From: Amphiscolops sp. MND2022
Lineage: Eukaryota
Direction of reading: 5' to 3'
Assembly (NCBI GenBank): GCA_964187785.1
Contig: OZ076409.1
Span: 44,270,001-44,334,000, forward strand
Length of the DNA: 64,000 nucleotides
Below are positions 1 to 63,750 of the stretch, in pieces; position 1 is the stretch's first letter; each line of letters starts with the position of its first letter. Below the pieces are notes generated by a model that searched no databases, was not told the DNA's origin, and saw only the letters and a list, made by a program, of their open reading frames with translations. The position numbers and the translations under genes were made by a program.

Positions 1-757
1 ACTTCTTCGAATAACCAACACCACACAACCTATTGCATTACTTGAAACCATCAGAAGGGCAGACGTAGGCGACACAATCGTTCGCACCATAGAAGGCAAT
101 TCCATTATTTCCATTTTAGTAAGGAAGCATGAGCTGTACGGTTTCTCGCTTCTTGCCTCCAGACAAGGGTTGAAGGATGTGAAGACATTTTTGCACCAAC
201 AAACGAAGAAGCAAGTTGCAAAACAGATGGAACAGTTCCTGAAAACGATTGTCCCAGAAGCATTGAAGATCATTCAATCTGTTTTCGATAATGACACGGA
301 AGTTCTGTTGGTTCATGGTGAAATACACGCTATCAACGAGCAAGAAGAGGAAGTATCAGTCATACTTCACTTTCCGAACGATGTCGTTGACATAAACCAA
401 CCTATCGACCCGGATTCAGATTCCGAAATTGAATTCGAGACACTTTTTGACGCAAATGATACTGACAACTTTTCGGACGCCAGTACACTGCCAGCGAACG
501 ACAGTGATGCAAACGAAGAACAAACGACATTTTTTCACTTCCGAAGCCTGAGGAATTCTATTTCCGACTACTCGAGTTCCAACGAACAACCTTCAATAAG
601 TCGATCTCCATCTCCACCCCGGAGAATCGTATCTCCAACACAGCTTACCAGCCAAATCAGACAACAGACATTACCGCAAAACACTAGAACAAACAAAAGA
701 CGGATAGTGCCTTTACTTTTACATCAGAAACTTTACGAATTTGAGTCAACACCCTAG
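1..757 (+). pseudogene. Partial duplicate of the 2581-3480 ORF (truncated by the window edge)
   Basis: Near-identical to 2724-3480. Confidence 0.85.
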
Positions 758-2044
758 TTACAATAGTAGAAGCGATTGAGCATTATTATTATACATTGTG
801 TCCTTAATCAAATGCTCAATGCACTCATGTTGAAAGCGCAAAATAAATGAAACCATTCTTTCAGTTGCATAAGCGATTGAGAGCTTTACTCAAGCATTGC
901 TTCAATAATCAATCGTGCTCTGTGTTTAGTCTTCATTTTGCTGAAAAAACATGCCTTCGAACATATCCACTGGATCTTTTGGTCGCGAAAGCGATTGGAT
1001 GCAATCTTATGTCATTGCTGCCTAATCCATCGTGCGCCCTCCTCGCTTTGGTTAACAAATAAAAACAATTTCCCTTCATTCCACGAACTTCTTGCTTCTT
1101 CACGAACAACAAACACGATTCTTGCATTCTGAACTTTAAATTTTCAAACCCTTTATCTATCTTTTCCACTTACATATTTAACCACATTTCATTAAAATTC
1201 TTGGGTTCTAATTCATTTTATTATTCAATACACTTGATAAAATCTCATTTCTTTCATTAGTGTTGTTACATAAACAACTTCTATTAAACTACTCATTACC
1301 TTACAACTTTTTACAAATGACCATTCACAACTTCATTTCAACTATTTGCCTCACAATACTTTTACCGCTTAAACGTATTGAAAATTCCACTCAATCCTTC
1401 ATTGATTCGAATTAAACAATATTCGTTGTACTTTATTTCTTTGTGTATTCTTGACACCTTTTGAAATGCATCTCACAAAGACCCCTTTTCCAATGAACTG
1501 GAATTGTCTATATAACGAGACCGTTTATGCCATCAGAAGTATTCGCCTACTCAACCAAAATATCGAACTCACATTACATAACGCCCAAGTAGTAGACTTT
1601 TAATATATGAGCCCACGTTGGATCGAATTCACTTTGTATTTGCATTCAACTAACTTCCGCAAACCAGCCTTCAACATGTGGGTAGAAGTCCGCTTTCAAA
1701 CTTTCCAGTTTGAGCTCATGAAAATGTATTAAGCCCCAACTAATTTTATCCGTGCTGCACAATCCGGGACCGAATAAAATGAGCGAGTGCTCACCCCGCC
1801 CTGCTGTGGCATCCCTGGCTAGACCCAATGAAAGAATAGTCAGGCTCGAAACCAATTTTACACGAAAGGGTAAAAATTACTTTAATAATTACAGCCCGCC
1901 TCATACTACAAATACTCCCAACCGCCAGTACTAACTCCCAGACAGCCGAAACGAAACAGGGTGTCATCTTCAACTTGGAACAACAAATATTGCTCACCGA
2001 AAAATTTGTGAAAGTTCGACATTCTTTTCTTTTTCCTTCATACG

Positions 2045-2572
2045 AAACCGAAATGGCTACCGCTTTATCGTGTTGAAAACGTTCTCACCAACTCGAACTA
2101 CATTGTCCGCAAAGTTGTCACCAACGAAACTCAATGCTTGCACCGAATGCGTCTTAGACCTTGTCAACCTCAATTTGATGTCGAAGACTAGCCGTGTATT
2201 AATGAGCAAAATTTCGCTCCGGATGGCCCTTTGACGAATGAAAATACAGAAACTGAGTTTTTCGACAATGCAATAGTTCAACATATCTTCCAGCAACGGA
2301 AGACAGCTTCTGATCCAGGAATTAACAAAAACAGTCAATTTTCCTCGGAACGTAGTGTCATCACCTTCCAACCTGATTCTTTACCAACAAGTCCTATCGA
2401 AACAACATCAGAACCAACCTTTCACGACTCCATTGACCGTGAATCTTTTGTGGTGGAAGGACATGTCCCAACTCTGATGGAAGACGGCCCGAAGTCATCG
2501 ACACTACCGATTATCGTATTGACAACCCGGACGAAACTTCTTCCGATGATGCGAGATATGGCGCCACTCTGA
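2045..2572 (+). pseudogene. Gypsy integrase C-terminal (GPY/F-type) region plus low-complexity tail
   Basis: Translates KPKWLPLYRVENVLTNSNYIVRKVVTNETQCLHRMRLRP, aligning with RWVGLFIVQKVLPNENYIVRRLNTNIT*NLHRIRI at ~63265. In frame with ORF 2231-2572 across one TAG. Confidence 0.85.
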
Positions 2573-2580
2573 GGTACGCG

Positions 2581-3480
2581 TTGCGACGCGACGATCGTTT
2601 CGCCCTAGCAAGACAGTTCTCAATGTATATCTCTATCAGTCACCTGCAGCAACATTTGGAGTCAACATGCAACCCAACGTTTGAGACTGTCTTTTGCATA
2701 TCGCAATGTTTAGCATTGGAGCAACTTCTTCGAATAACCAACACCACACAACCTATTGCATTACTTGAAACCATCAGAAGGGCAGACGTAGGCGACACAA
2801 TCGTTCGCACCATAGAAGGCAATTCCATTATTTCCATTTTAGTAAGGAAGCATGAGCTGGACGGTTTCTCGCTTCTTGCCTCCAGACAAGGGTTGAAGGA
2901 TGTGAAGACATTTTTGCACCAACAAACGAAGAAGCAAGTTGCAAAACAGATGGAACAGTTCCTGAAAACGATTGTCCCAGAAGCATTGAAGATCATTCAA
3001 TCTGTTTTCGATAATGACACGGAAGTTCTGTTGGTTCATGGTGAAATACACGCTATCAACGAGCAAGAAGAGGAAGTATCAGTCATACTTCACTTTCCGA
3101 ACGATGTCGTTGACATAAACCAACCTATCGACCCGGATTCAGATTCCGAAATTGAATTCGAGACACTTTTTGACGCAAATGATACTGACAACTTTTCGGA
3201 CGCCAGTACACTGCCAGCGAACGACAGTGATGCAAACGAAGAACAAACGACATTTTTTCACTTCCGAAGCCTGAGGAATTCTATTTCCGACTACTCGAGT
3301 TCCAACGAACAACCTTCAATAAGTCGATCTCCATCTCCACCCCGGAGAATCGTATCTCCAACACAGCTTACCAGCCAAATCAGACAACAGACATTACCGC
3401 AAAACACTAGAACAAACAAAAGACGGATAGTGCCTTTACTTTTACATCAGAAACTTTACGAATTTGAGTCAACACCCTAG
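2581..3480 (+). CDS. Retroelement accessory ORF or frameshifted pol extension: degenerate TARG1/OARD1-like macrodomain, then acidic and Ser/Pro/Arg-rich tail
   Basis: 299-aa ORF. The pattern TVFCISQCLAL...VGDTIVRTIEGNSIISILVRK...GLKDVKTFL...IIQSVFDNDTEVLLV resembles TARG1-class macrodomains, but the Gly-rich ligand loops are not recognisable. Confidence 0.45.
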   Translation: MRRDDRFALARQFSMYISISHLQQHLESTCNPTFETVFCISQCLALEQLLRITNTTQPIALLETIRRADVGDTIVRTIEGNSIISILVRKHELDGFSLLASRQGLKDVKTFLHQQTKKQVAKQMEQFLKTIVPEALKIIQSVFDNDTEVLLVHGEIHAINEQEEEVSVILHFPNDVVDINQPIDPDSDSEIEFETLFDANDTDNFSDASTLPANDSDANEEQTTFFHFRSLRNSISDYSSSNEQPSISRSPSPPRRIVSPTQLTSQIRQQTLPQNTRTNKRRIVPLLLHQKLYEFESTP

Positions 3481-4173
3481 TTACAATAGTAGAAGCGATT
3501 GAGCATTATTATTATACATTGTGTCCTTAATCAAATGCTCAATGCACTCATGTTGAAAGCGCAAAATAAATGAAACCATTCTTTCAGTTGCATAAGCGAT
3601 TGAGAGCTTTACTCAAGCATTGCTTCATTAATCAATCGTGCTCTGTGTTTAGTCTTCATTTTGCTGAAAAAACATGCCTTCGAACATATCCACTGGATCC
3701 TTTGGTCGCGAAAGCGATTGGATGCAATCTTATGTCATTGCTGCCTAATCCATCGTGCGCCCTCCTCGCTTTGGTTAACAAAGAAAAACAATTTCCCTTC
3801 ATTCCACGAACTTCTTGCTTCTTCACGAACAACAAACACGATTCTTGCATTCTGAACTTTAAATTTTCAAACCCTTTATCTATCTATTCCACTTACATAT
3901 TTAACCACATTTCATTAAAATTCTTGGTTTCTAATTCATTTTATTATTCATTACACTTGATAAAATCTCATTTCTTTCATTAGTGTTGTTACATAAACAA
4001 CTTCTATTAAACTACTCATTACCTTAAAACTTTTTACAAATGACCATTCACAACTTCATTTCAACTATTTGCCTCACAATACTTTTACCGCTTAAACGTA
4101 TTGAAAATTCCACTCAATCCTTCATTGATTCGAATTAAACAATATTCGTTGTACTTTATTTCTTTGTGTATTC

Positions 4174-4455
4174 TTGACACCTTTTGAAATGCATCTCACA
4201 AAGACCCCTTTTCCAATGAACTGGAATTGTCTATATAACGAGACCGTTTATGCCATCAGAAGTATTCGCCTACTCAACCAAAATATCGAACTCACATTAC
4301 ATAACGCCCAAGTAGTAGACTTTGAATATATGAGCCCACGATGGATTGAATTCACTTTGTATTTGCATTCAACTAACTTCCGCAAACCAGCCTTCAACAT
4401 GTGGGTAGAAGTCCGCTTTCAAACTTTCCAGTTTGAGCTCATGAAAATGTATTAA
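4174..4455 (+). CDS. Small ORF of unknown function upstream of env
   Basis: 93-codon ORF (first ATG a few codons in) with protein-like composition; the duplicate copy carries a GAA>TAA stop at 1601. Confidence 0.35.
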   Translation: MTPFEMHLTKTPFPMNWNCLYNETVYAIRSIRLLNQNIELTLHNAQVVDFEYMSPRWIEFTLYLHSTNFRKPAFNMWVEVRFQTFQFELMKMY

Positions 4456-4589
4456 GCCCCAACTAATTTTATCCGTGCTGCACAATCCGGGACCGAATAA
4501 AATGAGCGAGTGCTCACCCCGCCCTGCTGTGGCATCCCTGGCTAGACCCAATGAAAGAATAGTCAGGCTCGAAACCAATTTTACACGAA

Positions 4590-6838
4590 ATGGTAAAAAT
4601 TACTTTAATAATTACAGCCCGCCTCATACTACAAATACTCCCAACCGCCAGTACTAACTCCCAGACAACCGAAACGAAACAGGGTGTCATCTTCAACTTG
4701 GAACAACAAATATTGCTCACCGAAAAATTTGTGAAAGTTCGACATTCTTTTCTTTTTCCTTCATACGAAGCTGTCATTGAACAGCGCTATAAGGACCTTT
4801 CGAACGAAATTGAACAAATATGGACATATAAAAACTACGGCTGTCCGTTGAATTTTGCCAATCTCGAGGACCACTCTTACGGTCTAAGATGGATCACCCA
4901 TGAGGTATTACAGCAAAACAAGGAAGCACAGGGCGGCATAAAAAACCTGGCTGACGAAATTGGGAGCCTGTTGAGACACTCGGGGACTGACTCTGCCCAA
5001 CTACATAGGTAGACGAGGGGTTTACCTGCAATATTGGATGGTGCCGCTGCAGTTCGAGGCGTGGGCATTGCCGGTTCAAAGGTTGTTTGTGTACTGAAGA
5101 CATTATTTGGTGGATACAATGATGGCAGGATCAAACAAAATCAGAAGAACATTGACGCGGCATATCAGTACATGAACATCATCACTGATGAAGTCAAAAC
5201 TATAACGAGTGAGCAAAATGATAATTTTTTTACGGTCGCGGGGGAGTTACGTGATGTTCGAGCAAAGCAACAGGTCATTATTGACACACAAAACAAAAAC
5301 AGGGAGGCAGCTTGGAAACATTTCGCTATCACTTGCAATAATACCAATGAAATGCGAAATTGTTTACAATATCTCTTTACTCGCCAGCAGACCGGACATC
5401 ACTCAATCATGTTACAAAGTATTTTTCAAACCTTATACACCAACATTAAAAGTCGCCGGGCAGCCTGTATGCTTTTCGAATCAACGTCCTAAATGCTCTT
5501 GCACCACTCATCAACCAGTATTTGCCCATCTCTTTGGTTCCTCGAGAACAATTGAGACATATCCTGACCACTTTTCATCTTGGCGAATCCGGAAATGCTG
5601 ATCGCTTAACTTTGGCTATACCACCACAGGAAATTCTTTCATGTTACGAATCAAAACTTGTTACGAATGTTCTACCTACAAAGCCTGGTTTAATGCTTAC
5701 ACTTGCGATCCCAATGGCATCAAGAACTACTGTGCTAAATGTTTTACACATAATACCAATACCGATGCATGATGGACAGTCGGGGAGACCCGAAGCAAAA
5801 TACCTCGCCATTTCGATGGATAATCAGTTACTTGCTCTCATCAACGACGAAGATCTTGACTTGTGCATCGGTTCAACAAGGTATTCAATTTGCACCAACG
5901 CCATTCCTAACGTTACGTCTAAACATTCATGTCTGGCCACTTTGTTTTTTCACAGTGACCACATGATGGCAATCGAAAGGTGCAAGATGGATATTATCCA
6001 ACTGCCGAGGGTAGAAAAAGCGAAAAACATCGGCTTTGGACGTTGGCTCATAATGGCAGCTTTTTCGAAGTGCAAGTTGGCGGAAACTGCCAGTAATGGC
6101 AGCAATCCGTTAGAAAAAATCGAGCACCCTGGTTGCAGGGTTTGCATTTTAACATTGGCATGCGGGCAACAACTGGCAGGAGATAACATCAGACTACGCT
6201 TTGACTTATTAGCTTGTGCGTTATTACCAAATATTCGTTTGGACGTGACCTTACCCGATCCTTTAGCAAGCATTTTCGAACTGATTCCTCCACTGGAAGA
6301 ATTACCACACTTCAGTTCGATCGCGGAAGCGCAACCGCAAGCCTTTGATGACATTCAACCGAAATTTCAATTCCTGGAAACTTCCGCACCGGATCAGGAA
6401 GCTTTAAAAAAACTGGCTGCACCTATTGCTTCAAAATTACGCCCTATGAAGCCTGAATTTGTTGCAAAGTTTGGGCAGTACATTCCCTGGAAATGGTCTT
6501 TGTGTTTTGGGTTATTGTCTTTCTTCATTAGCATCGCACTTCGTTGGGGCTATTCGCATCTTATCCATAAATGGAATAAAATACACAAAAGAGTTCCTTT
6601 TCGAACATTACATGAGGGGCGTAAAATCAAAACTTTGCCGGTATCTGTAGTCAAACCTGAAGACTATGATTTTATCCAAGCACATCCTGATCACCCATTA
6701 CATAAATGTGCATTAGTCCTACCCTTGGAAATTCAATCCGATTTCAATGAAACAGCAGACAAAAAGTCCACTTATACATTCCTGAGGCAGTATTCACCGA
6801 GGCTGAGAAAACAAGATCAAGAAGCCACTGAGCTCTAA
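4590..6838 (+). pseudogene. env: Envelope (class I fusion, F-protein-like) gene, disrupted
   Basis: Hydrophobic N-terminus; R-*-T-R|GLPAILDGAAAVRGVGIAG is a furin-type site plus fusion peptide (TAG at 5010-5012); heptad-like region; LTLAIP...LHIIPIPM; Cys-rich block; C-terminal TM WSLCFGLLSFFISIAL. A 1-nt frameshift near 5465 joins ORFs 5034-5492 and 5522-6838. Confidence 0.8.
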
Positions 6839-6911: not shown

Positions 6912-8135
6912 TTAGTCTGATTCCACGAAGCACCTGTTACAACGCTTCCTTTTCTTCGATTTTTCACTGCTGTTGATGGGTTGAATCTCGTCTGGAGTCG
7001 TTTCAAAGCCTCTGCGGAAATCACAGCGCATGGAACGCATCAATCGTTCCCGGTCGACACCCTCAATCCATCCGATGTACCCAGGCAGAAAGGTCCAGCA
7101 ACTTTGATCGCCACCGGGGGGCATGGTAACAACCAGATGAACTGACCCAGCAGGCAGCAACACAGTCTCTTCGGGTCTCTGCAGGCACCAGCGGAACCCA
7201 TTGTACCGTCTCTGAGGTCCACTTGAGAGGAAATCTAGAAAAGAATTGAGAGTGAGGAAGGAGTTCACGCGAGACGGGCAGTCCTCTCACAATTGGTGGT
7301 TAACCATAACTTGAGAAAAAAACAAAATTTCTTGTACTGACCTGTTGGTCGTGTCTGCTCTTTTTAGAAATACACAAAAACCGAACCTTTTGACCATCAC
7401 CAGAACACTGCAGTTGACTAACACTCTCACCCATTGCTGGTTCGAAATGGGAGGCAGTATACCACCAGCCTCTTGTCGCAGTGAAACTTCTTTCCTGTGA
7501 CCCTCCGAAATTCTGGTACTGGAACATGTCCTTTCCAGCGGGCAGGTAACTTTCAAGGAAGATGGTTGAACCAGGCAGCACAGGGCACGCTCGCTCTCCC
7601 TTGTCTTCTTCTACAATGACCTTGTTCAGAATCTTCCGTCGGGTGAGATTCTTTTCTTTTGATAGTTTTTCAAGATCTGGCGAAGGCTGAATAACATTCC
7701 CTCCGATCACCTTCGTTGGAGCACTTGGGAAACATGGTAATTCTTCCCCTTCTTGCAACGTGACAAGGTCAAAAGAGGGAAGATGCAGACGGAACATAGC
7801 AGAATCCTCACGTAAGAACTCCCAAATGTCTTCAATGCGTTTTGGATTGAAGTTATGCAACGCACCATCCTGTTCTGAGAACTGAGATGCGTCAGTAACG
7901 CTGTAAGAAAAGAACAAAATGATGAAATTCGCAACTTTCAAAGTGAACGCCCTTCAATCTGACTCTACATATGACTTTGAAAATTAGTTCACAAAAATCT
8001 CCGAACGAAACTCTTTATGCTATGGAACCATATTTTTGAGTTTCATCCTAGATGTTTCCCAAAACTCGAAAAGAAATGAACAACTCACTTGAACAACTTC
8101 ATCGCGGTGTGCCCTGTAATCGCGGGAAGCAGCAT
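6912..8135 (-). pseudogene. Spliced JmjC-domain Fe(II)/2-oxoglutarate dioxygenase-like gene (exons ~8135 or 8102-8089, 7900-7387, 7309-6912; one frameshift near 7269)
   Basis: WYTASHFE (T-x-x-H-x-E; HFE at 7449-7441). Removing GT-AG intron 7386-7310 creates GQK|LWL. CLQRPEETVLLPAGSVHLVVT supplies the distal His (7139-7137). C-terminal KSKKRKR. Upstream intron 8088-7901 has GTGAGT and a long pyrimidine tract ending CAG, in phase. Confidence 0.78.
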
Positions 8136-8360
8136 CAGCAATACAATACGTACTAGTCATTGTTAAAGCAGTTTGGATTAATGCAATGCAGAGCGTGGCA
8201 GTATGCATTCATATCCTGAAAAGGTAGTACTGGGCTGTAGCGATACCTATTCCAATCGCGCTAAGCCTTCATTACTCATTCAACTTCACGTGAACCCAAC
8301 ATACAGTGATGCAAAACAACAAAATGTAAGCGACAAAATCAACTAAACAAGTCATCTAAA

Positions 8361-8717
8361 CTAAACAAGAAAATGATGTTCGGTGACAACTGCATCATTT
8401 TGAATCTTGTTCTGGCCAATTCGAGGTCGACTTCGTTGAAGCGGGGCCTTCAGCAAAAATAGGGCGACAAGCCAGCCTGCTTTGGCGACATCGCTTCCCG
8501 CTTCAACTCCAGCAGTTGTAACTGGCGGGCACAAATCGCCCCATTCATCAACATAGGAGGTTCGAACACCGTCCCTGAGGAGAAACGTTCCATTTGGACA
8601 ACATATGGCTTCCAAACAACCCTCAGCGTCAACCTTGACTTTCACGCAAGCAAACGCCACACAACAGAAAACCAACATCAGCAAAACTTTAGTATTGCGT
8701 GTTCTGAGATTCTCCAT
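8361..8717 (-). CDS. Small Cys-rich protein with signal-peptide-like N-terminus and a second short hydrophobic segment
   Basis: 118-aa ATG ORF: VLLMLVFCCVAFAC; GCLEAICCPNG...DLCP; AGWLVALFLL. A recognisable paralogue lies at 9.75-10.13 kb. Confidence 0.55.
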   Translation of the reverse strand: MENLRTRNTKVLLMLVFCCVAFACVKVKVDAEGCLEAICCPNGTFLLRDGVRTSYVDEWGDLCPPVTTAGVEAGSDVAKAGWLVALFLLKAPLQRSRPRIGQNKIQNDAVVTEHHFLV

Positions 8718-9751
8718 ACCCCTATAAACTTTGTCAATTTATGGGTTCATGACCGAAAAACAAACAAGAGGTCATGTTCGTAAAAGCAAAAACCCAGTAG
8801 CAAAGAAAATTGCTTATCCCTTCATCCGAACAAAGTGAGTCCTCAAACAATCCCGAAAATTCAACTTCAAATATTCAAAAACCAATTACTGGAGCCAATG
8901 CCCTCAAACAAATCTTTTTATGTGCATTTCTATTCCAAAAACTCATTACCGAAATTGACTGGAATCAGCAAAGTTGATCGAAGAAGGAAGAAAATTGAAA
9001 GAAATCATTACTTTAAAAACCAAAACCCATTTGTGAATCTCCACATCTCATTATTCAAAGTATATTCAAATGACCTAAAAGTTTTTGGGAAACAAAAAAA
9101 TGAGATTTTCTTTTCGACTGAATGAAGCCAATTGTGCTGAAAAGTTTTCGCCTAGTTTAAAAATCTTTGACCGAAACCAAAATCTCGAAAAAAACTACTC
9201 TAAAAAGCATATGCATGCTCCCATGACTTCCAGGTGGACTGTGACACAATTCAAAACTTTTGCAGAAAAGTTCAAATTCGCTAGATGGTACCGCTTTTTC
9301 AAAAAACTGCCCGACTGTGATATTCATCATGAGAGAGAGAGCGAAAGAGAGAGAGAAGAAACCAACTGATGAGAGAGAAAAACGAGATTAAATTATTTCT
9401 CCTCCTAATATAAATCAATGTTCATCCATTATTTGTCATTGTCTGAAATAAAACATCAATAAATGAATGGAACCTAAACGCTTTAGCCTAGAAAACCACT
9501 CGAGCTACTTTAAATCACGGAGTCATCAATACAGTAGGTAGTGTTCATTTTTGCAACACACTGCAAAGATGTCAATGAGTGACGCATGAGTTCCCATTCC
9601 AACCATAAAATGCCCATGCAGCGCTGTAGTAGAAGCCAATCCAAATGCGACAAGACTCTATTTCTCATCCAACCTCAAGTGAACTCAACCTACAGTGAAA
9701 TAATATACCAAAATCAAACTACAACAAAATGAACTAAACTATTCACCTAAA

Positions 9752-10126
9752 CTAAACAAGGAAATGAAGTTCGTTAGCAACCGCATTACCCCGAATCTCC
9801 TTGTTTTGCCACATTCCAGGGTGACGTCACTTCATTGGAGCAGGGCATCCAGCAAAATTAGGCGACCAGTCGGCCTGCTCTGACGACACCGCTACCAACA
9901 CCAACTGCAGCAGTTATACTTGGGGCAAAATGTATCGGGCACATATCGCCGCATCCTTCCACATAGGAGGTGCGAATGCCGTTCTTGAACAGAAACGTTC
10001 CTTTTTGACACAAATGACTTCCAAACGACCCTCAGAGTCGACCTTGACCTCCACTAAGCAAACATTATACAACAAAAAACCGACATCAACAAAACTTTAA
10101 GCATTGCCTGTTCCAAAAATTTCCTT
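9752..10126 (-). pseudogene. Decayed paralogue of the 8361-8717 protein
   Basis: Translates KVLLMSVFCCIMFA* and GTFLFKNGIRTSYVEGCGDMCP (vs GTFLLRDGVRTSYVDEWGDLCP), with frameshifts and stops. Confidence 0.75.
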
Positions 10127-11014
10127 TTCCGTTACGAGTTTTGCAAAATTTTGGGTTCATGACTGAACAAAAACTAGAGCTCATATTCACAAATGATACA
10201 ACTTGTTAGCGAAGAAAATTGCTTAACTTTTGTCCAAACAAATTAGTCCTCAAATAATACAGAAAACCTCAACTTCAGCTTCATAAAAACCAAATATTGT
10301 AGCCGATGCTCTCAAACAAATATCTGAATCTGCATTCCGATTCCAAAAACCTATTACCGAAGAGGACTGTACTCAGAAACGTTGATTAAGGAAGGAGCAA
10401 AATTGAACAAAATCATCACTTCTGAAACAACAACACAATTAGTGCATCTTCATATCTCATTATTCAAAGTATATTCATTCGACTCAATAGTTTTTGGACT
10501 GTGCTAGTTGAACTTTTTCGTATTGATAACAAAATCCCCATAAAAACATACGTCCAAGCTCCCATGACTTTCAGATGAACTGTGACTAATCTCAAAAAAA
10601 ATTGTGAAATAATGGTTCAAATTCCCTAGTTGTTACCGCTTTTCCGACAAATTGCCCGACTGTAATCTTCATCATGCCTTGTAATGATTCGGACGAAGAT
10701 ATTCAGACACAATTAGTGTTCTCAAACAAGACTGGACAAAAAACTCTGGAAACATGCAAACAACCAACAAAAAACAGAAGAAATCAATTCTCAAAAGAAA
10801 AGGGGGAGTTCGTCTGAAAAGAGAGAAAACGAAATAATGAAAATTGTGAAGTATTTCAACTTATATTATGTATCAAGGTTCATTTATTATTTTGTCAATA
10901 TGTGATATAGAATACCGAAAAATGAATTGAACGTAAATGCTTTCGCCTGGAAGAACAATCTGTCCTACTTTAAAAGAGTACAAAAAAATGAGCGACACTT
11001 TTTTTTGAAGAGAC

Positions 11015-12470: not shown

Positions 12471-13379
12471 TCTAAACCTCAGTGGAAAAATGAAAACGTT
12501 TTAGAGAGCGAAACAACCAGTTAGACCAACAACAACAACAACAAAGATGGAAGTACATCAGGACTTCACACAAACATGGGATCAGGAGGTGTTTCCAACG
12601 AAGATGGAGTGTGTGTAGTTTTATAGTAGTTGTGATGTTCATCACTTTTACAAGGCTGTGATCAAAGTGGCTCAGTTTTTTGAACAACATTCCATTGATT
12701 TGCTGAAGGTAACTGTAACATTCAGTATTTAGTTGTTTTGAGAAAATTAATGTAACTGTAATCAGTGATGAAAAAGTCAATTCAAAATTTTTTTGTGTTG
12801 CCAACCCTTTGTATTTGTCCGCTATCGATGGAAACATGCCAACTGTGCCTTTGACTCTTTACGTATGCAACAGCAGTTAAGTTTCCAAAAAAATTTTTTG
12901 AGCAAAAGGACAGTGTTTTGCTTTTTCTTTTCATCCAAACGTCTCAATGACCAAAGTTTGAACATTCCTTTCCGATCAGGTCTTTGTGTCCTGTAAAGCT
13001 TTAGGAGGTTTTGGATGTTGTCACGCCACGACTGTTTGATATTGGTTAGTTGACAATTTAAAAAAGAAATAGAATAATGAAAACAACACTGCCTCATGAA
13101 GTACTTCATACTGCTTAACGTTTCAATCGCCTCTGATTCATGCAAAAAACACCATTGAAAGTACATAAAAATGTCAAGGAGCGTAAAACATTTAACACAC
13201 ACAAATGCTGGGTTCCGTGTAATTGAACAATAGGGGTGTTAACAGGCTTCAGGGAAACGTTGACATGTCGCTCAGTATGATTGCAGAAAAATCCAAAGTT
13301 ACTTGACACAGTGCATACCGCAACCAACTCAAATTTCAAGATTTTGTTGAAGAAAGAAAATTTGATGAAAGAATCAATT

Positions 13380-13820
13380 CACCTAATTTCCGGACATTTG
13401 AACTTGTGGATGTAACAACTGCCAAATTTACCAAGGCCAGAAAAAAATTGCACGATGACCCCATTGTCGTTGGTTTTACAGTACCAAACAAGGGCAAACA
13501 AAGAATTGTAGATTTTCGTTACGTTTTTCTCGGCAGAACTTTGAGACCAAGGTCGTTTGGTGCAAACGATATGAAAACAGACTACATTGCAATGACATGA
13601 ACCAATCCCTACGATAGCTTCTCCGAGACAGCGAAATCACGAATTCGCGAAAACGCAAAGCATTATCTTCAACAAGAAGAATGCTTTGTACCAAATGCTC
13701 ACAAAAGAATTCTATCTAGAGTTTTTGTTTTAAAAAACACGGTGCAGTGGGTAATCGAGAACCTGGACTCTCCAAAATTGATTCGAAAGGAGCATACTTT
13801 TTTTCGTTAGGATCACTAAT
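13380..13820 (+). pseudogene. pPolB relic: palm motif C region and C-terminal part
   Basis: KLHDDPIVVGFTV..GKQRIVDFRYVFL...DMKTDYIA (cf. 'PIxVGFxIL..AKLRMLxFYYxFL...MDTDS') and NREPGLSKID (cf. 'RxPGLFKxE'). Confidence 0.72.
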
Positions 13821-40932: not shown

Positions 40933-41504
40933 AATCAACTTGTCAGAAAATCTAAGCTGTGAATATGCAATGACTAAAAGGCCTTTCTGCAATTTTGTAT
41001 GATTCACAAAAACTTAATGGAACAGGGAATGTTACAAACCTAAGGGTTGTTGAATAACCAGCGGGTCAGCGTCAGTAATACGCAAATCTCCCTCAAAGAA
41101 CAAAAATGAGTCCAATTATCACTTTCCAGATCATGATCGTTTAAGATCAAATGGATCTGAGAATGACCGGGTTCAAACAGCCCATAAACAATGACGCAAG
41201 ATCTACGTCATAAATGACAATCAACTTGTCAGAAAATCTAAGCTGTGAAGATGCAATGACTAAAAGGCCTTTCTGCATTTTTGTATGATTCACAAAAACT
41301 TATTGGAACAGGGAATGTTACAAACCTAAGGGTTGTTGAATAACCAGCGGGTCAGCGTCACTAATACGCAAATCTCCCTCAAAGAACAAAAATGAGTCCA
41401 ATTATCACTTTGCAGATCATGATCGTTTAAGATCAAATGGATCTGAGAATGACCGGGTTCAAACAGCCCATAAACAATGACGCAAGATCTACGTCATAAA
41501 TGAC
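40933..41504 (+). repeat. 286-bp tandem duplication, followed by imperfect short repeats (~41540-41930)
   Basis: 40933-41218 matches 41219-41504 almost exactly; then recurring TTGACGTCA..AAAACG and GTTGGCTAATCGCTAAC units. Confidence 0.92.
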
Positions 41505-42422
41505 CAGGGTTAAAACAGCTCAATACTGATACGACGGAATTATGACGTCGACAGTGACCGAAACTAAAAAAAGAAAAATAACAAATAAAAACAGACGTTA
41601 GCAAATGCTAAAAACACAAAATTGACGTCATCAAAACGATGACAAACCAAATTGAAGTTGGCTAACCGCTAACGAAGTTGACGTCATCAAAACGAAGACA
41701 AACAAAATTGATGTTGGCTAATCGCTAACAGAGAAGAGGTCACCAAGACAGTGAGAAATAAAATAGAAGTTGGCTAATCGCTAACGAAAATGACGTCATG
41801 AAAACGGTAACAAAATAAAATTGACGTTGGCTAATCGCTAACGAAATTGACGTCAGCAAAACGTTGACAACCTTGGTCAAACGAATTAATTCATTTCGTG
41901 ACCAATAAAAACGCGACATTGGCAAAACGTCAACACCTGGATTACAAAGGAAATAAAAGACAGCTTCTACGCCTTCCCAAAGAGTGCTGTACCGAATCAC
42001 AGAGTACTGAAAATCTCACATTCCTCTAAGAAAGCGTACTACCGAAAGAATCATCTCTTCAATTTCGACAACCCCACGAGATCTCTTCGTCCCATGACAG
42101 TGGCCCTGTCACAGTCCGCATCGGGCCTGGATTGTCGTTGCCAAGAGAAGCAGTTTGGCCGTGGTCATGGATGCATTATGAAAACTTGCAGTCTAAGCAG
42201 GCTTTTTAAATGTATGCTTTGATTACCTAATTTTATAAATTCATTGGCTGTTTGACGATGTCATGTCGTCTTTTATTGTGGCTCAAAGGTGTTGCTCTTA
42301 ACTTTTAATAGATAAATATTTGTTAATTGTTGAAATATTTAGTTGTTTAGCCTCATGGAAATCAGTCACTCTCTTAGCATCATCAAAATGCCTAAATCAA
42401 GATAATTAGTCATAATTTCTCA

Positions 42423-43220: not shown

Positions 43221-43546
43221 CTAAAACAGCATGGTATTTCTTAGTGATGCATAAGACGACTGAAAATGAGAGAATGGTAATTGAAAACTCCAAAGTTTTC
43301 CGTTTTACAGGAATCGAAAATTTTTATTGTAGAAGCCGATGAAAATAGCATCAATGAAAGCAATGTAAACCACAACGTTGAAATTTTTCGGCCATCTAAG
43401 ATTTCGGAGGTACCCGAAATTGTGAAAAGAAAAAACCAAGTAATAAATAAGTGTGTTCGTGAATAACATCTGATAGCTACGGAAAAAACGCAATGGTTGA
43501 CAATTTCCAGAATTTATCGAGAAGAAACACAACTGATGCGTTTTTT

Positions 43547-43877
43547 AGTCGGCGCTTTTCGTAGAAAAACGCAGACTATAGTAGTGACTTTTCTTTTTTT
43601 AAAAAACCAACAAAGTGACAGTTTTTATAAGCCTTATAAGCTGACTTGAACTAACACTAAATGCCACACTACTTCTACTGGCACTTGAGATAGAGTTGAT
43701 TAGGAGTTTTTGAGGTCCCCTTTTATATTTTTCGGCACTATGCGACTTCCCGTGGACCAAAAAAATCAATTTTTTCCTCATGCGGGTACTGTAGAAGAGA
43801 ATACTTGACACTTTGAAGTCCCTTTGCTATTTTTGAGCCTTAGATATGGCGCCGACTTGGGCCGTTCCCGGCTTGTT
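43547..43877 (+). mobile_element. HINE/DINE-1-like element
   Basis: TTTT-AGTCGGCGC...GGCGCCGACT, then hairpin GCCG-TTCC-CGGC and TTGTT. Confidence 0.8.
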
Positions 43878-44179
43878 TATACTGGCCTGAAAATATTAGA
43901 TCCAATACACCCTCAATGACCTCAACGTTCTGTTTCATAATGATAATGATGTTCGCGTGTCATTTGACAAGTAATACTGACTTTCAGTTGCATAGTTAAT
44001 CTTTTCAAATACGATATATTCTGTAGAAATATTTATACTGAAAATACATTCCTAGAGAAGCGAAAGAAAGATAACTTCAAAATTCATCGGTGGAATTGCC
44101 TCAAAAAACCTTTCCGTACATCTGGATGTTATAGTTTACAGTGTCTCCTGATTAATTTCGGCCTAAAAACAACCAGACT

Positions 44180-44512
44180 ACAAGCCGGGAACGGCACAAG
44201 TAGGCGCCATATCTAAGGCTCAAAAATAGCAAAATGACTTCAAAGTGTCAAGTATTCTCTTCTACAGTACCCGCATGAGGAAAAAAAAAGAATTTTTTGT
44301 GGTCCACGGGAAGCCGCATAGTGCCGAAAAATGTAAAAGGGACCTCAAAAAAGCCTAACTAACCTCTATCTCGATTGTCAGTAGAAGTAGTGTGGCAATT
44401 AGTGTTAGTTCAAGTCAGCTTATAAGGCTTATAAAAACTGTCACCTTGTTGGTTTTTTAAAAAAGAAAAGTCACTACTATAGTCTGCATTTTTCTACGAA
44501 AAAGCAGCGACT
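44180..44512 (-). mobile_element. HINE/DINE-1-like element, inverted close relative of 43547-43877
   Basis: Reverse-complement match along the full length. Confidence 0.8.
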
Positions 44513-50507: not shown

Positions 50508-50585
50508 TTAAAAAATAGGTATCTCTAATATTTAAACAAGAAGCAATTGCTTCTTGTTTAAATATTAGAGATACCTATTTTTTAA
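50508..50585. repeat. Perfect 78-bp palindrome without spacer
   Basis: 39-bp arms centred between 50546 and 50547 (AAGCAA|TTGCTT). Confidence 0.97.
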
Positions 50586-58850: not shown

Positions 58851-59455
58851 CTAGTATCTGTCCGACAGTACATCAAATCGGACCCTCCAACTGAAACTTT
58901 TCATAATTGTCAACGGCAATGGATTGGCTATCCTTCTGTTGTCTGGCAGCAACAGATGGAAAAAGCTATCATTAATACGTATAATAACACTCACTTGTAT
59001 CAAAAACCAATTCCTGTTTGGGATCCTGACTATACAACAACTTTCGCTCCCCGATTCAGGCCCATTCCTATAATTGACAGTTACAACTCAACGTATATCG
59101 ACCCAGACTATGACAGAGATCCCTATTGGGACACTGAGATCTATAATCAGGATTTGTTGCAATTCTAGCACGTCCTTGTTGATATCGAGCTATACCAACG
59201 AACAGTCCACGAGAAGCCTTCAATAACGCACAACAAGAAAACGAGAGCCTTGATTGAAAACTGGCAAATGAATGATGGCACCAACCATCCACTGATCCCA
59301 AACCTCTTGGGAACCGAAGACCCGGAAACATTTGGTGGAACAACTCCTCAATCATTAATAATTGAAAACATTTTCAGAATGTCGTTATTACCAAAAACTA
59401 TGAACCAAACTGTATACCACTTTCAACGAATATCAACCTCAAATGCAAAAAGTTT

Positions 59456-62400
59456 ATGTTATATTTCCCAATGGACTTTGGGGAATTGACCATGGAAAGC
59501 CTAATCGACACTGGGGCACTATCCAGTGCAATCCCTGAAATGGACCTCCGGAAAATCCAACTTCTCTCTCCACAATCTGTTATCCGGGAATGTCCGCCTC
59601 CGAATTTTCAGATCATAGTCGCAAACGGACAATTAGAAACTCCTCAAGGTACTATCAAGGTTAAGTTTGAGGTTGGTGACATAGAGTTCCACGAAATCTT
59701 CATAGTGATGAAGAAATTGACGGGACCAGTCATTGGACTAATGTTCCTTCAGAGAAACCATACAGTCTTGGATATGCGCCAAGGAATATTGTATTTTCCG
59801 TTCTTTTCAATGCAGCTCAAAACAGCTGATCACTGATACTCCAACGTATTAGAACCAATTCTCAATCCAGCAGAATTCACCAGTCCGCCGAATGATAAAA
59901 TCCTAATCAAGACAAACTCCTTACTCTACCCTGAGAATGCTGTAGCGGGAATTCCGCAACCGAGCGACCTTCTACACGAGGAAAACGACATTACCTTTTT
60001 TCCAGCTGTGGTCACTCTGAATGATGGCTATATATTGATAACGGTGAATAATTTCACGGACCATCCCTTCAAACTCAAAAAGGACTCCATATTGCTAATA
60101 TCTACGTCATGACACCACAGAACAAATGAACTATGTCAAACCGGTTGACCCGGCATTGACCTGGCATCTTTTACAAAATGACCAAGAGCAAGCAGGCCGT
60201 TACGTCAGCCTCATCAAGACGAATAAAAACCCTCAGAACTCCGAAACGCATTAGTTCCCAGCTCCAGAAAACCCAGGCAACCCAGATGAACACCCGCCTA
60301 TCCAAAAAATGATGTTACGGGAATTACAGGCCTTACAGTACCTGGAGACTCTAGACCTTACAAATGATGCAGAATGCAGGACAAAAATCCCAGAAAACTT
60401 CGACTGGAAAGACTCAACTCTTGCACCCGATGAAATAGCAAGAATTGAAGAATTTCACGACATTTTTGCGAGACACAGATTCGACATAGGCATGAACGAG
60501 GAATTCACGGTGAAACCTGAATTCACGGCCTAAAGACGATTCCCCAGCTTATAGCAAGAGCCTCCCAGCGCCAATTATTTTGAAGCAGGACTTTTTTGTC
60601 GAATTAACCATGTTACACGAATATGGTATCATCACGACCCTTCCATTTTCAAAGTAGGCTAGTCCGATATTCGCCTAAAAGAAGCCAAACGGAAAACTTC
60701 GTCTACTGGTTGACTTGAGAAAAATCAACAACCTAATTTCAGAGGATTATGTAAACAATAACCACCATGTCAAAACGCTAGTCGATGCTGCCCAACACAT
60801 GGCAGGCACAAAACTGTTTTGTAAATTAGATTGTTCGCAGGCATATCATTGCCTCCAGATGGCTGACCAACGGTCAATTGAGATGTTAGCCTTCAATTTC
60901 GCTCGTAGCATTATTGCCTACAGACGTTTGGCTCAAAGCTTTAGCCGGGCACTGTTCGCAATTGCAGGTTTCATGAGAGAATACCTTGATAAAGTCATTA
61001 AAGCGTATCAGTACGCGAACGACATAGGCATTGCAGCCAATGATGCAGACCACCTCATCGCGAACCTCAGGGCAGCCTTCAAATGCATCCAGGAAGCAGG
61101 CCTTAAATTGACAATGCTCAAAGGTCATTTTGGTGCAACAGAAATCGATTTCGTCGGACGAACAATTACCCCCAGAGGAGTGAAACCCCAGAAAAAAAAC
61201 GTGCAGAACTTCCTTGAAAAAACCGAATTCCCGAAGTCGAAAAAGGCTTTACAACGCTATTTTGGATTCTTAATCTACTATAGAAACTATCTCCCAAGAC
61301 TATCAGAACGCCTTGCTTCAATCTACAAGATGCTGAAAAGTGACGAAATTTCCTAGTATCTAAAGAACTGGTTCAACAGTTTGAGGAAATCAACAAAGCA
61401 CTCGACAAATGTTGCGATTTAGCACTACAACAGCCTCTTCGTAACAAACAAAGTGCACTAATGACAGTTGCAAGTTTTGGTGCCGCTGGATACGCAATCT
61501 TAAATAGGGATAATCCTAACAAGAAATTCACTTCACTTCGAAAGTCGTATAAATCGGTTGCCTTAGGTTCAAAAACCTTCACCCCAGCTGAGATAAAAAT
61601 GTCCAAAAACGCAAAAAGAATTTCTTGCGATTTACTTCGCATTCAAAAAATTTGGGCATATTTTCTGGGGTGCGCCTAAACCGGTCATTATTCTTTCTGA
61701 CAATAAAGCCGTAACCCGATTTTTCCAAACGAAATTTGTACCGCCAGGTCTATGGAATAATTATGACTACGTAATACTTTTCAATTTCGTTATAGCACAC
61801 ATCCCAGGAGCACAAAACACGGCAGCGGATAACTTATCCCGACTAGAAGCTGACCCGAAGGACAAACTGGTCTTGAGAATCAGAGAGGACGTACGGACGG
61901 TCCCAATCGAAACAAATGTCCAGTCAGCAGGCGTCTCACAGGAAGAACAAATCTTCTCCACAAATGATGATGATGAGGAAAACGAGGAACTCTGGGCGAG
62001 GAAAGCAGCAATTCGACACAACCCTGCCACATCAGATACAACCATCACAATTCAGTCCGTTTCTACAAACTTGATCAAACAACCTGAGATACAAGTCCGA
62101 CTACGGAAGACGAACCAGATAATTATTGAGCCATCCAAATATGAAGTATTACAGCAACTGAGGGCAAAACTGCTTCATGAGGATTACTCTGAAAATGTAC
62201 TGCAACAAGATGCCCGATATAGACATTATGCAAACAACTTGGAACTCATTGTAGTCAAGGAAGACATCCTGACGAGGCAATACTTCGATGAAACAGGGAA
62301 TGTGAAATACCATCAGATCCTTTTCCCGCGACACCTACTACAGGGACTGTTTCAGTCCCTTCATGGGACAGAACATAAGCACTCTGCATATCAAAGATGT

Positions 62401-63750
62401 TACACGAGATCGGAAAGAGGTATTATTATTCTAGCATGGCGAAGCATGTTAAAAGGTGGGTATAAGAGTGCGAACAATGCGCAAAGGGCAAACGAGTCCC
62501 CAATGCAACGATCATGCCTGAACTACTCAATTTGCCGGAAAGGGACCTTTGACCCGAAGACGCTATGCAGATGGACTTATTGCCGAATCTTCCCCCAAGT
62601 GGATAATTTGAAAACGTTCTAACTGCAATTGATATCTTCTCCCGATATCTGTTCGCCTATCCTCTTACGGACGCCTCAGCGATCAATGTAGCAGAAGTGC
62701 TCATTGACATAATGACTAAACATGCGTATTTACTAACAACGCTCTTTGTTGATAAGGGAGCTGTATTCACTTCCACGATTATTGCGGAGATTACGCTCAA
62801 ATGTGCAACGACAAAGCACCCGCAAACAGTCGGGAAATCAGAGCGGACACATACTTCACTCAAGACGAAACTCAAAACAGCATGTGACGAATACCGCCGA
62901 CAATGGCAAAAATATTTGCCATTGACAGTCCTAAATCATAATACAAGTTACCATGCCAGCATCGGTTGTGAACCAACAAGAGTATTTCATGGAAGAATTC
63001 CATACAATGTCGTGGATCACAATCTTGGAAACAATCCAAACGAACAGATCACTCCCTTAACCGATATTGCGGAAGAAATCCAAACTCACTCGGACAAAAT
63101 CTTGATCGATAAAACGAAACAAAATATCATGCAATCATACATCAAATACAAGGAGTACTATGATCGCAAAGCGAAAGCTGCTCCACTCAGGGGAAACGAA
63201 CATTGCTTCGTATTGCAGCCGAAAGCGGATCATCAAGGATCAAAATTTCCTTTCAAAGATTAACGTTGGGTTGGACTATTTATAGTCCAAAAGGTACTAC
63301 CTAATGAGAATTACATTGTACGCCGGCTCAATACAAATATAACCTAAAATTTGCATCGAATTCGCATTGAAAAGTTTGTTCCCAATCAACCGCTTGAGGA
63401 CCATTTCCGAAAGAAGCGCTTGCAGCCAGACGAAGAAATTATCAAACTGCAAGACGACTTGTACACAGTAACGTGGGAAACAAACTTCGGTGAACAGCTA
63501 GCTACACGAGGCAATCAGCCTATTTCGACTAGCTTGCCGAAAGGCGAACAGCCAGTTACGACAAACCCTGATTTAAGTGACACACACGAGAATGAGCTCG
63601 ATTACATAATATTGAACGACAGTCCGAATGCCGTCCACGACGCCGCACACAAGCGGAATGAAGGATTAAATGATGACGTCAGAAAAAAACATGACGATAT
63701 TGAAGCTGAAGTGAATGAAAACTCTGATTGGCAGAGTCCGGCCGTTTAAC
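59456..63750 (+). pseudogene. pol: pol: aspartic protease, RT, RNase H, integrase
   Basis: LIDTGALSS; KLDCSQAYH and QYANDIGI (decayed YxDD); SDNKAV and HIPGAQNTAADNLSR; HHCC remnant, MDLLP/IDIFSRY, VDKG, SERTH; GPY/F-type tail. Confidence 0.95.

Follow-up and report, generated by a model that had tools for sequence, protein, structure and literature searches.

Ty3/Gypsy elements of Phalaenopsis carry an open reading frame (ORF) for an AlkB-type m6A RNA demethylase (PMC9289625), and giant-virus insertions in Amoebidium carry a KDM4-like JmjC gene that encodes the catalytic domain only (PMC11244446). TET/JBP genes have been described in fungal DNA transposons, SET genes in oomycete HarbingerS and MuDR elements and anti-silencing proteins in Vandal elements (PMC12730594), and bdelloid long terminal repeat (LTR) elements have enzymatic ORF3s that are common to several retroelement types (PMC5408684). 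Antisense accessory ORFs are known from Retand/Grande elements, as is HBZ from HTLV-1 (PMC11963269). A survey of env-bearing Gypsy elements (PMC13524379) makes no mention of Jumonji or demethylase in the passages used here, and in the literature searched, supplements aside, we found no JmjC gene in an LTR element. Here we describe such a gene in a 64,000-nucleotide stretch of the Amphiscolops sp. MND2022 genome (contig OZ076409.1, positions 44,270,001 to 44,334,000; hereafter the window). The JmjC-like gene (6912..8208, minus strand; three exons and two predicted introns) lies tail-to-tail with env within a degenerate member of a Gypsy family that is 14.2 kb long and bears env, here called family A.

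The JmjC gene is cargo of an env-bearing Gypsy family

A search of the genome (1.07 Gb in 1929 contigs) with the gene gave 31 DNA matches, and 14 places span most of it at 79–100% identity, so the gene is not single-copy. With the 3' part of env as query, 15 matches fell in 14 places, each adjoining one of the 14 JmjC places; at 13 of them the match is nearly complete, and at one it is a piece of 130 nt. In an LTR search that scored 40 of 83 candidates, ten of these 14 proved to be flanked by two LTRs lying 13.6–14.0 kb apart. The LTRs are 322–324 bp long, run from TG to CA and are 99.7–100% identical in the three copies with both flanks, and 5-bp target-site duplications (CATCC, AATAT and TATAT) bound all three copies checked. 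In the window copy this structure is not intact. A primer site, TGGTGACA, follows the 5' LTR, and the plus strand then reads gag, protease, reverse transcriptase (RT), RNase H, integrase and env; the minus strand holds the JmjC gene and a small ORF, both between env and the 3' LTR. The LTRs, primer site, duplications and gag-to-integrase order are those of env-bearing Ty3/Gypsy elements (Metaviridae, errantivirus-like). The 801-aa env frame of a young copy has a hydrophobic leader and a C-terminal hydrophobic stretch; env of the window matches Pfam Baculo_F at E 6.4e-4 and 18.9 bits, below the cut-off of 24.1, and the full frame is unmatched at E 0.05. Taken together, these data show that the JmjC gene is an accessory gene of an env-bearing Gypsy family and is copied along with the element.

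This association had been proposed in an original prediction made from the letters of the window, which also named a Polinton relic as another possible carrier. That relic is probably a short frame at 13307–13600 that is reminiscent of a protein-primed DNA polymerase B motif and has no Pfam match; it lies near 13.3 kb, outside the bounds of the element, and the JmjC gene does not travel with it. Separately, we note that the family-A integrase frame (L023:3493-5538) has a C-terminal extension of about 350 aa without a Pfam match.

Gene structure and purifying selection

All parts of the gene lie on the minus strand. Exon 1 (8089..8208), whose start codon was set by comparison with unbroken copies, is followed by intron 1 (7901..8088; about 188 nt, with a GTRAGT donor, a pyrimidine tract and a CAG acceptor). 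Exon 2 (7387..7900) encodes the N-terminal part, YTASHFE (7461–7441; His 7449–7447, Glu 7443–7441) and GQK (Lys 7389–7387), and intron 2 (7310..7386; 77 nt, GT..AG) begins immediately past this Lys codon. Exon 3 (6912..7309) encodes LWL, a helix insert, QRP(E/G)ETVLLPAGSVHLVVT and a basic tail; in the window copy the distal His (7139–7137) lies within QRPEETVLLPAGSVHLVVT. The KSKKRKR tail and the stop of the gene terminate at 6912, 73 bp from the env stop at 6838. The original prediction had joined two minus-strand ORFs by removing the 77-nt intron and had listed these motifs, including GQK|LWL, and the 73-bp gap, all of which we recovered as described. Its start at 8135 had to be moved: the unbroken copies begin at an ATG equivalent to window position 8208, which adds exon 1 and a second intron.

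Comparison among copies speaks for this gene model. In 8 of the 14 copies, removal of the two predicted introns leaves a 368-codon frame free of indels and stops. The length of intron 2 ranges between 71 and 81 nt over the 14 copies, with differences that are mostly not multiples of three, while GT and AG are retained in 13, as would be expected of a real intron. The intron 1 donor is GTAAGT in 12 of 14 copies and GTGAGT in the window copy.

We then compared ratios of nonsynonymous to synonymous substitution (dN/dS). Four old copies, each paired with one young copy, gave 0.34, 0.36, 0.32 and 0.28 (p <=5e-5), and four pairs among the old copies gave 0.35–0.61. In the three old pairs with alignable env, the env ratio was 0.27–0.40, close to the JmjC values. 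Two further LTR families that carry the gene, introduced below, gave 0.22 (family C) and 0.16 and 0.21 for old pairs and 0.55 for a young pair (family F). The JmjC gene is thus maintained by purifying selection in families A, C and F.

The product belongs to the JmjC class

JmjC oxygenases are defined by an H-x-D/E...H motif (PMC5352680). The 368-aa product has an iron triad of H192, E194 and H270, with a spacing of 79 against 68–88 in whole host cores. H-x-E is present in 14 of 14 copies, the Lys of GQK in 13 (Arg in one) and the distal His in 13 (deleted in one). In JmjC enzymes, Lys and Thr bind 2-oxoglutarate; the candidate ligands here are a Thr three residues ahead of the first His and the GQK Lys, and in alignments this G-x-K falls on GEK in PHF8 and on GHK in JMJD6. 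Conservation is highest at the His, Glu/Asp, Lys and His columns when families that share only 20–30% identity are compared. By these residues, the product is a candidate for catalysis dependent on Fe(II) and 2-oxoglutarate.

Exon 3 of a young copy matches Pfam JmjC at E 0.024, and the Pfam cut-off is passed by sister family C (30–31 bits) and by family D (39 bits), one of the DNA-transposon families described below, of which 24 loci were retrieved. A profile built without the KDM7-like family matched JmjC chains only (JMJD6 9e-4, PHF8 0.011), and all listed Foldseek rows for both structure models are JmjC proteins, the models indicating a double-stranded beta-helix. These results place the family-A product in the JmjC class, as originally predicted.

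The same lineage occurs in distant LTR elements

Other LTR elements of this genome carry genes of this JmjC lineage, in an antisense position wherever an element was read. Family B, of which one copy was read, is an env-Gypsy with 444-bp LTRs that are 98.2% identical and a CAGCT duplication; its JmjC gene lies between pol and env and has one stop in that copy. Family C (two copies), also an env-Gypsy, has 504-bp LTRs that are 98.6–100% identical, duplications, and the JmjC gene again between pol and env. Family F (L151:695-4373, L152:4828-8506; also L072, L074, L076 and L122) is a Gypsy whose 3.7-kb LTRs contain an intronless antisense JmjC gene; given this position, an element has the gene twice and a solo LTR has it once. 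In a full element the two LTRs are 99.9% identical, and a CAGAC duplication, a primer site and a purine tract are present, as are gag-pol and an env-like frame. Solo LTRs bounded by 5-bp duplications hold the gene as well. Most of the 92 matches scored (313 candidates), and of 82 database clusters, are of the family-F type. Family G (one copy; L153-L155, C13:16.286-16.294 Mb) belongs to BEL/Pao, with a Peptidase_A17 match at E 3e-50, and its JmjC frame of 468 codons runs antisense beside the 3' LTR. Identity of the RT core to family A is 54–59% for families B and C and only 27% for family F. The lineage is common to several unrelated LTR elements of this genome, retained in at least five LTR families with hundreds of gene copies over all families. 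This spread suggests that the elements bring their own tool to alter host chromatin or host defence proteins.

Some further observations on family F stand apart from these points. A weak match to the Macro domain (E 0.05–0.08) lies past RNase H in its pol, and a further ORF of 326 aa follows env. One family-F protein, P0061, has been deposited as a protein of a cyanobacterial metagenome-assembled genome on a 1.9-kb contig, and is probably misbinned host DNA.

JmjC genes also occur in other multicopy families. Two families of roughly 19-kb DNA transposons (L107-L110, L131-L134, C7:8.647-8.666 Mb and C1:25.63-25.65 Mb; L111-L112, L135-L140) have terminal inverted repeats starting CATTACA, 2-bp duplications in four of four copies and copies that are 99.6–99.7% identical. 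Both encode a KDM7-like JmjC protein, SET-domain genes and a BRCT gene, together with an ORF that by motif resembles a chromo-barrel and that has no Pfam match, which makes up a set of chromatin genes on a young transposon. A very abundant family, to which L163, L164 and most matches of its search belong, joins C2H2 fingers to a KDM7-like JmjC domain; that search had 599 candidates, of which 150 were scored with 147 matches and five were read. A SET-like motif is near the gene in L163. L166 and L167 represent two further multicopy JmjC/cupin families, of which L166 falls in the tree with the LTR-borne group.

Relation to host demethylases and origin

Closeness to KDM2/KDM7 demethylases, which had been suggested from motif spacing, is not borne out. 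The second iron ligand is Glu in family A, and the F-H-I-D-F-G-G-T-S-V-W-Y motif (H-x-D) of KDM2/KDM7 is replaced: family A has SHFEPAMGESVSQ where host KDM7 has TDFHIDFGGTSVWY, so that GGTSVWYH is lost. JHD, PHD and CXXC gave no Pfam match on exons 2–3 at E up to 10, and the one JHD match in the genome is at the host gene. By motif, the host has genes resembling KDM4, KDM5, KDM6, KDM7, JMJD4, JMJD6 and TYW5. Trees were built on a 115-aa core with 23 and 22 rows, which include no human or other reference sequences. In both, a branch sets the LTR-borne genes on one side (98/99 for the 23-row tree, 88/82 for the 22-row tree); among them A, P0007, G and F cluster (91/95, 88/93), and host KDM7 clusters with the DNA-transposon families (86/85). 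We therefore rejected KDM2/KDM7 membership. The trees do separate the LTR-borne genes from host KDM7; given their long branches, and with the second tree not starred, they indicate the lack of a recent capture from a host KDM and not a firm clade.

Because the JmjC genes of A, F and G are closer to one another than that of A is to those of its RT sisters B and C, the gene seems to have moved between elements. Another history, in which a host gene fragment was gained by transduction and is carried without benefit, would fit the host-like introns and the weak constraint in young copies set out below. We consider it scarcely credible and already largely refuted, since at the DNA level family A resembles none of 19 JmjC loci of the host or of other families, its intron 2 position differs from the host KDM7, KDM5, KDM6 and JMJD6 exons read, purifying selection is significant in families A, C and F, and the gene is kept in at least five LTR families.

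A possible role against silencing

Histone methylation is the main way in which animals silence retroelements, and in the searched literature we found no animal retroelement that encodes an enzyme able to undo such silencing. We tentatively favour, at a little under even confidence, a model in which the JmjC product is a nuclear eraser of repressive histone methylation, acting as an accessory oxygenase against silencing. We infer that the JmjC gene, being antisense, would be driven after integration by a promoter of its own at the element's 3' end, probably at the 3' LTR, as in the case of other antisense accessory genes (PMC11963269). Because the gene is antisense, its introns would not be spliced from genomic RNA and would outlive reverse transcription. 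The spliced message would give a 368-aa oxygenase consisting of the catalytic domain only, with a basic tail for nuclear import. In the nucleus, it would remove repressive methyl marks (of the H3K9 or H3K27 type) from histones, with little targeting expected because the product has no reader domain, and element copies would be kept transcribed. The chromatin context is in keeping with this model: in this genome JmjC and SET genes occur side by side on DNA transposons, giant-virus insertions bring KDM4-like JmjC genes limited to the catalytic domain (PMC11244446), and P0007 and families B and C also have basic tails. CpG observed/expected is 1.0 in the elements, that is, undepleted, a weak hint that silencing here may not act via DNA methylation.

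Several results weigh against this model. The family-A product scores 14.1–15.5 bits with Pfam JmjC (PF02373), below the cut-off of 24 bits; phmmer with the family-A protein alone retrieved no JmjC chain; and the family-A structure model is poor, with a predicted local distance difference test score (pLDDT) of 41 and a best Foldseek E of 5e-3. The nearest solved structures to the better model are JMJD6 and JMJD5, hydroxylases of non-histone proteins, and the LTR-borne lineage groups with no host KDM in either tree. Splicing of the JmjC introns is predicted from sequence. JmjC dN/dS was 0.29–0.78 in five of five young pairs, none significant, and env dN/dS was 0.02–0.19 in four of five, so recent constraint appears weaker on JmjC than on env. 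The old-versus-young ratios all use one common young copy, and intron distance (0.08–0.10) falls below dS (0.13–0.21), so dN/dS may overstate selection. Because decay after insertion inflates the ratios, stronger selection in the replicating lineage is likely.

The structural neighbours raise the main alternative, which we hold somewhat unlikely, that the product is an active JMJD6/JMJD5-like hydroxylase or arginine demethylase of non-histone host proteins, such as splicing or RNA-binding factors that handle element RNA, and not a histone lysine demethylase; arginine-methylated Piwi-pathway proteins are a speculative substrate. The ranks are close and the models weak, however, and the family-A model puts KDM6 first among solved structures. 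The LTR-borne genes also do not group with host JMJD6, which is present only as a 50-aa fragment filling 42% of columns. Between a histone eraser and such a hydroxylase, sequence cannot decide. The strongly divergent surroundings of the active site and the low profile scores would also suit a non-catalytic JmjC fold that serves as a shield or decoy by binding a silencing factor or the methylated tails of histones, for which fission-yeast Epe1 is reportedly a parallel. We regard this as improbable, because the His, Glu/Asp, Lys and His columns are the very ones most conserved, which argues for metal catalysis. Other giant Gypsy elements bear apoptosis and ubiquitin domains (PMC6431247), and by analogy the enzyme might benefit the host cell through survival, metabolism or stress response, thereby favouring cells in which the element replicates; no result indicates such a target, however, and all copies read lie inside mobile elements, making this very unlikely.

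Extending the histone-eraser model, a possible but still more tentative view is that a retroelement-specific JmjC gene forms an exchangeable antisense cassette of distant Gypsy and BEL/Pao elements, placed after env, in the pol-env gap or in the LTR, which would serve these elements to strip histones of repressive methylation, with the JmjC-plus-SET kit of the DNA transposons operating in parallel.

Features of the window copy

The window copy is an older, rearranged family-A member (92%) with most of its own gag-pol deleted upstream, and it is itself dead. The first unit of a tandem duplication (1..2046, plus strand; integrase tail, spacer and env start) is 99.4% identical to 2724–4769; the duplication is 2723 bp, restricted to this copy, and extends upstream of the window. 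The broken 3' part of the integrase frame (2045..3413, plus) has 83–89% aa identity to the young copy's frame, and the broken env (4596..6838, plus), resembling an F-type fusion glycoprotein, has 84–90% aa identity to the 801-aa frame of the young copy. The original prediction ascribed one frameshift to the JmjC gene, with decay similar to that of env. We found two frame breaks (near the first donor in exon 1, and near 7265 in exon 3) and 24 codons missing ahead of the basic tail; env is at least as decayed, with one in-frame stop (5010) and several frame breaks.

Between the JmjC gene and the 3' LTR lies a small antisense ORF (8433..8704, minus; about 90 aa, hydrophobic N-terminus, Cys-rich, no Pfam match). 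It is one of two variants at this position: 6 of the 14 copies share it, and the sequence of the other 8 differs. The 3' LTR remnant (9316..9517, plus) begins TGTGATATTCATCATG like young copies and has an internal deletion. It is followed by an older second copy of the small-ORF region (9660–10497) plus LTR (9660..10975 in all, plus; about 75% identity). The rest of the 64-kb window has no further JmjC match. At 59366–63400 is the broken pol of another Gypsy (protease, RT, RNase H and integrase; 31–48% identity to family-A pol), and ordinary repeats occur at 43540–44502, 50508–50585 and 40933–41876 (inverted-repeat elements, a perfect 78-bp palindrome and tandem arrays).

Comparison with known systems

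What is unusual here is JmjC in animal retroelements, spread over Gypsy and BEL; transposon-borne AlkB, TET and SET cargo and viral JmjC cargo were already known. The candidate enzyme is retained under selection in elements that are young and were copied recently, which makes the anti-silencing idea testable with a small soluble protein. One gene lineage over Gypsy and BEL, together with a position inside the LTR, bears on how accessory genes move between retroelements. Were the substrate not histone, it would point to an unrecognised host control step worth attacking for elements; were the cassette view true, it would mean an arms race across the genome in which transposons contend over histone marks with erasers and writers that they encode themselves.

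With the solved human structures of JMJD6, JMJD5, KDM6 and PHF8/KDM7/KDM2A, the product shares the double-stranded beta-helix, H-x-D/E..H and the 2-oxoglutarate Lys, at only 13–19% identity in structural alignments; family A has no reader or JHD domain and groups apart. Among mobile elements, the Phalaenopsis AlkB elements are likewise Gypsy with an extra Fe(II)/2-oxoglutarate dioxygenase ORF proposed to counter host control, but theirs is an AlkB fold class acting on RNA in one plant lineage, whereas here a JmjC gene is antisense, contains introns and occurs in env-bearing Gypsy and in BEL elements. The Amoebidium insertions share a catalytic-domain-only JmjC gene with introns in a genomic parasite, also proposed to counter host chromatin; they derive from a DNA virus with a clear KDM4 origin, whereas the retroelement genes have no assignable KDM parent. 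With the TET/JBP, SET and Vandal systems, the likeness is in transposon-encoded chromatin enzymes swapped between transposon lineages. Bdelloid elements likewise place one accessory gene type in unrelated retroelements of one animal genome, but the products there, a GDSL esterase, a DEDDy exonuclease and a dUTPase, do not act on chromatin. Retand/Grande and HBZ share the antisense gene between pol/env and the 3' LTR and a proposed nuclear regulatory role; their proteins are of TRP28 or bZIP type, with no enzyme.
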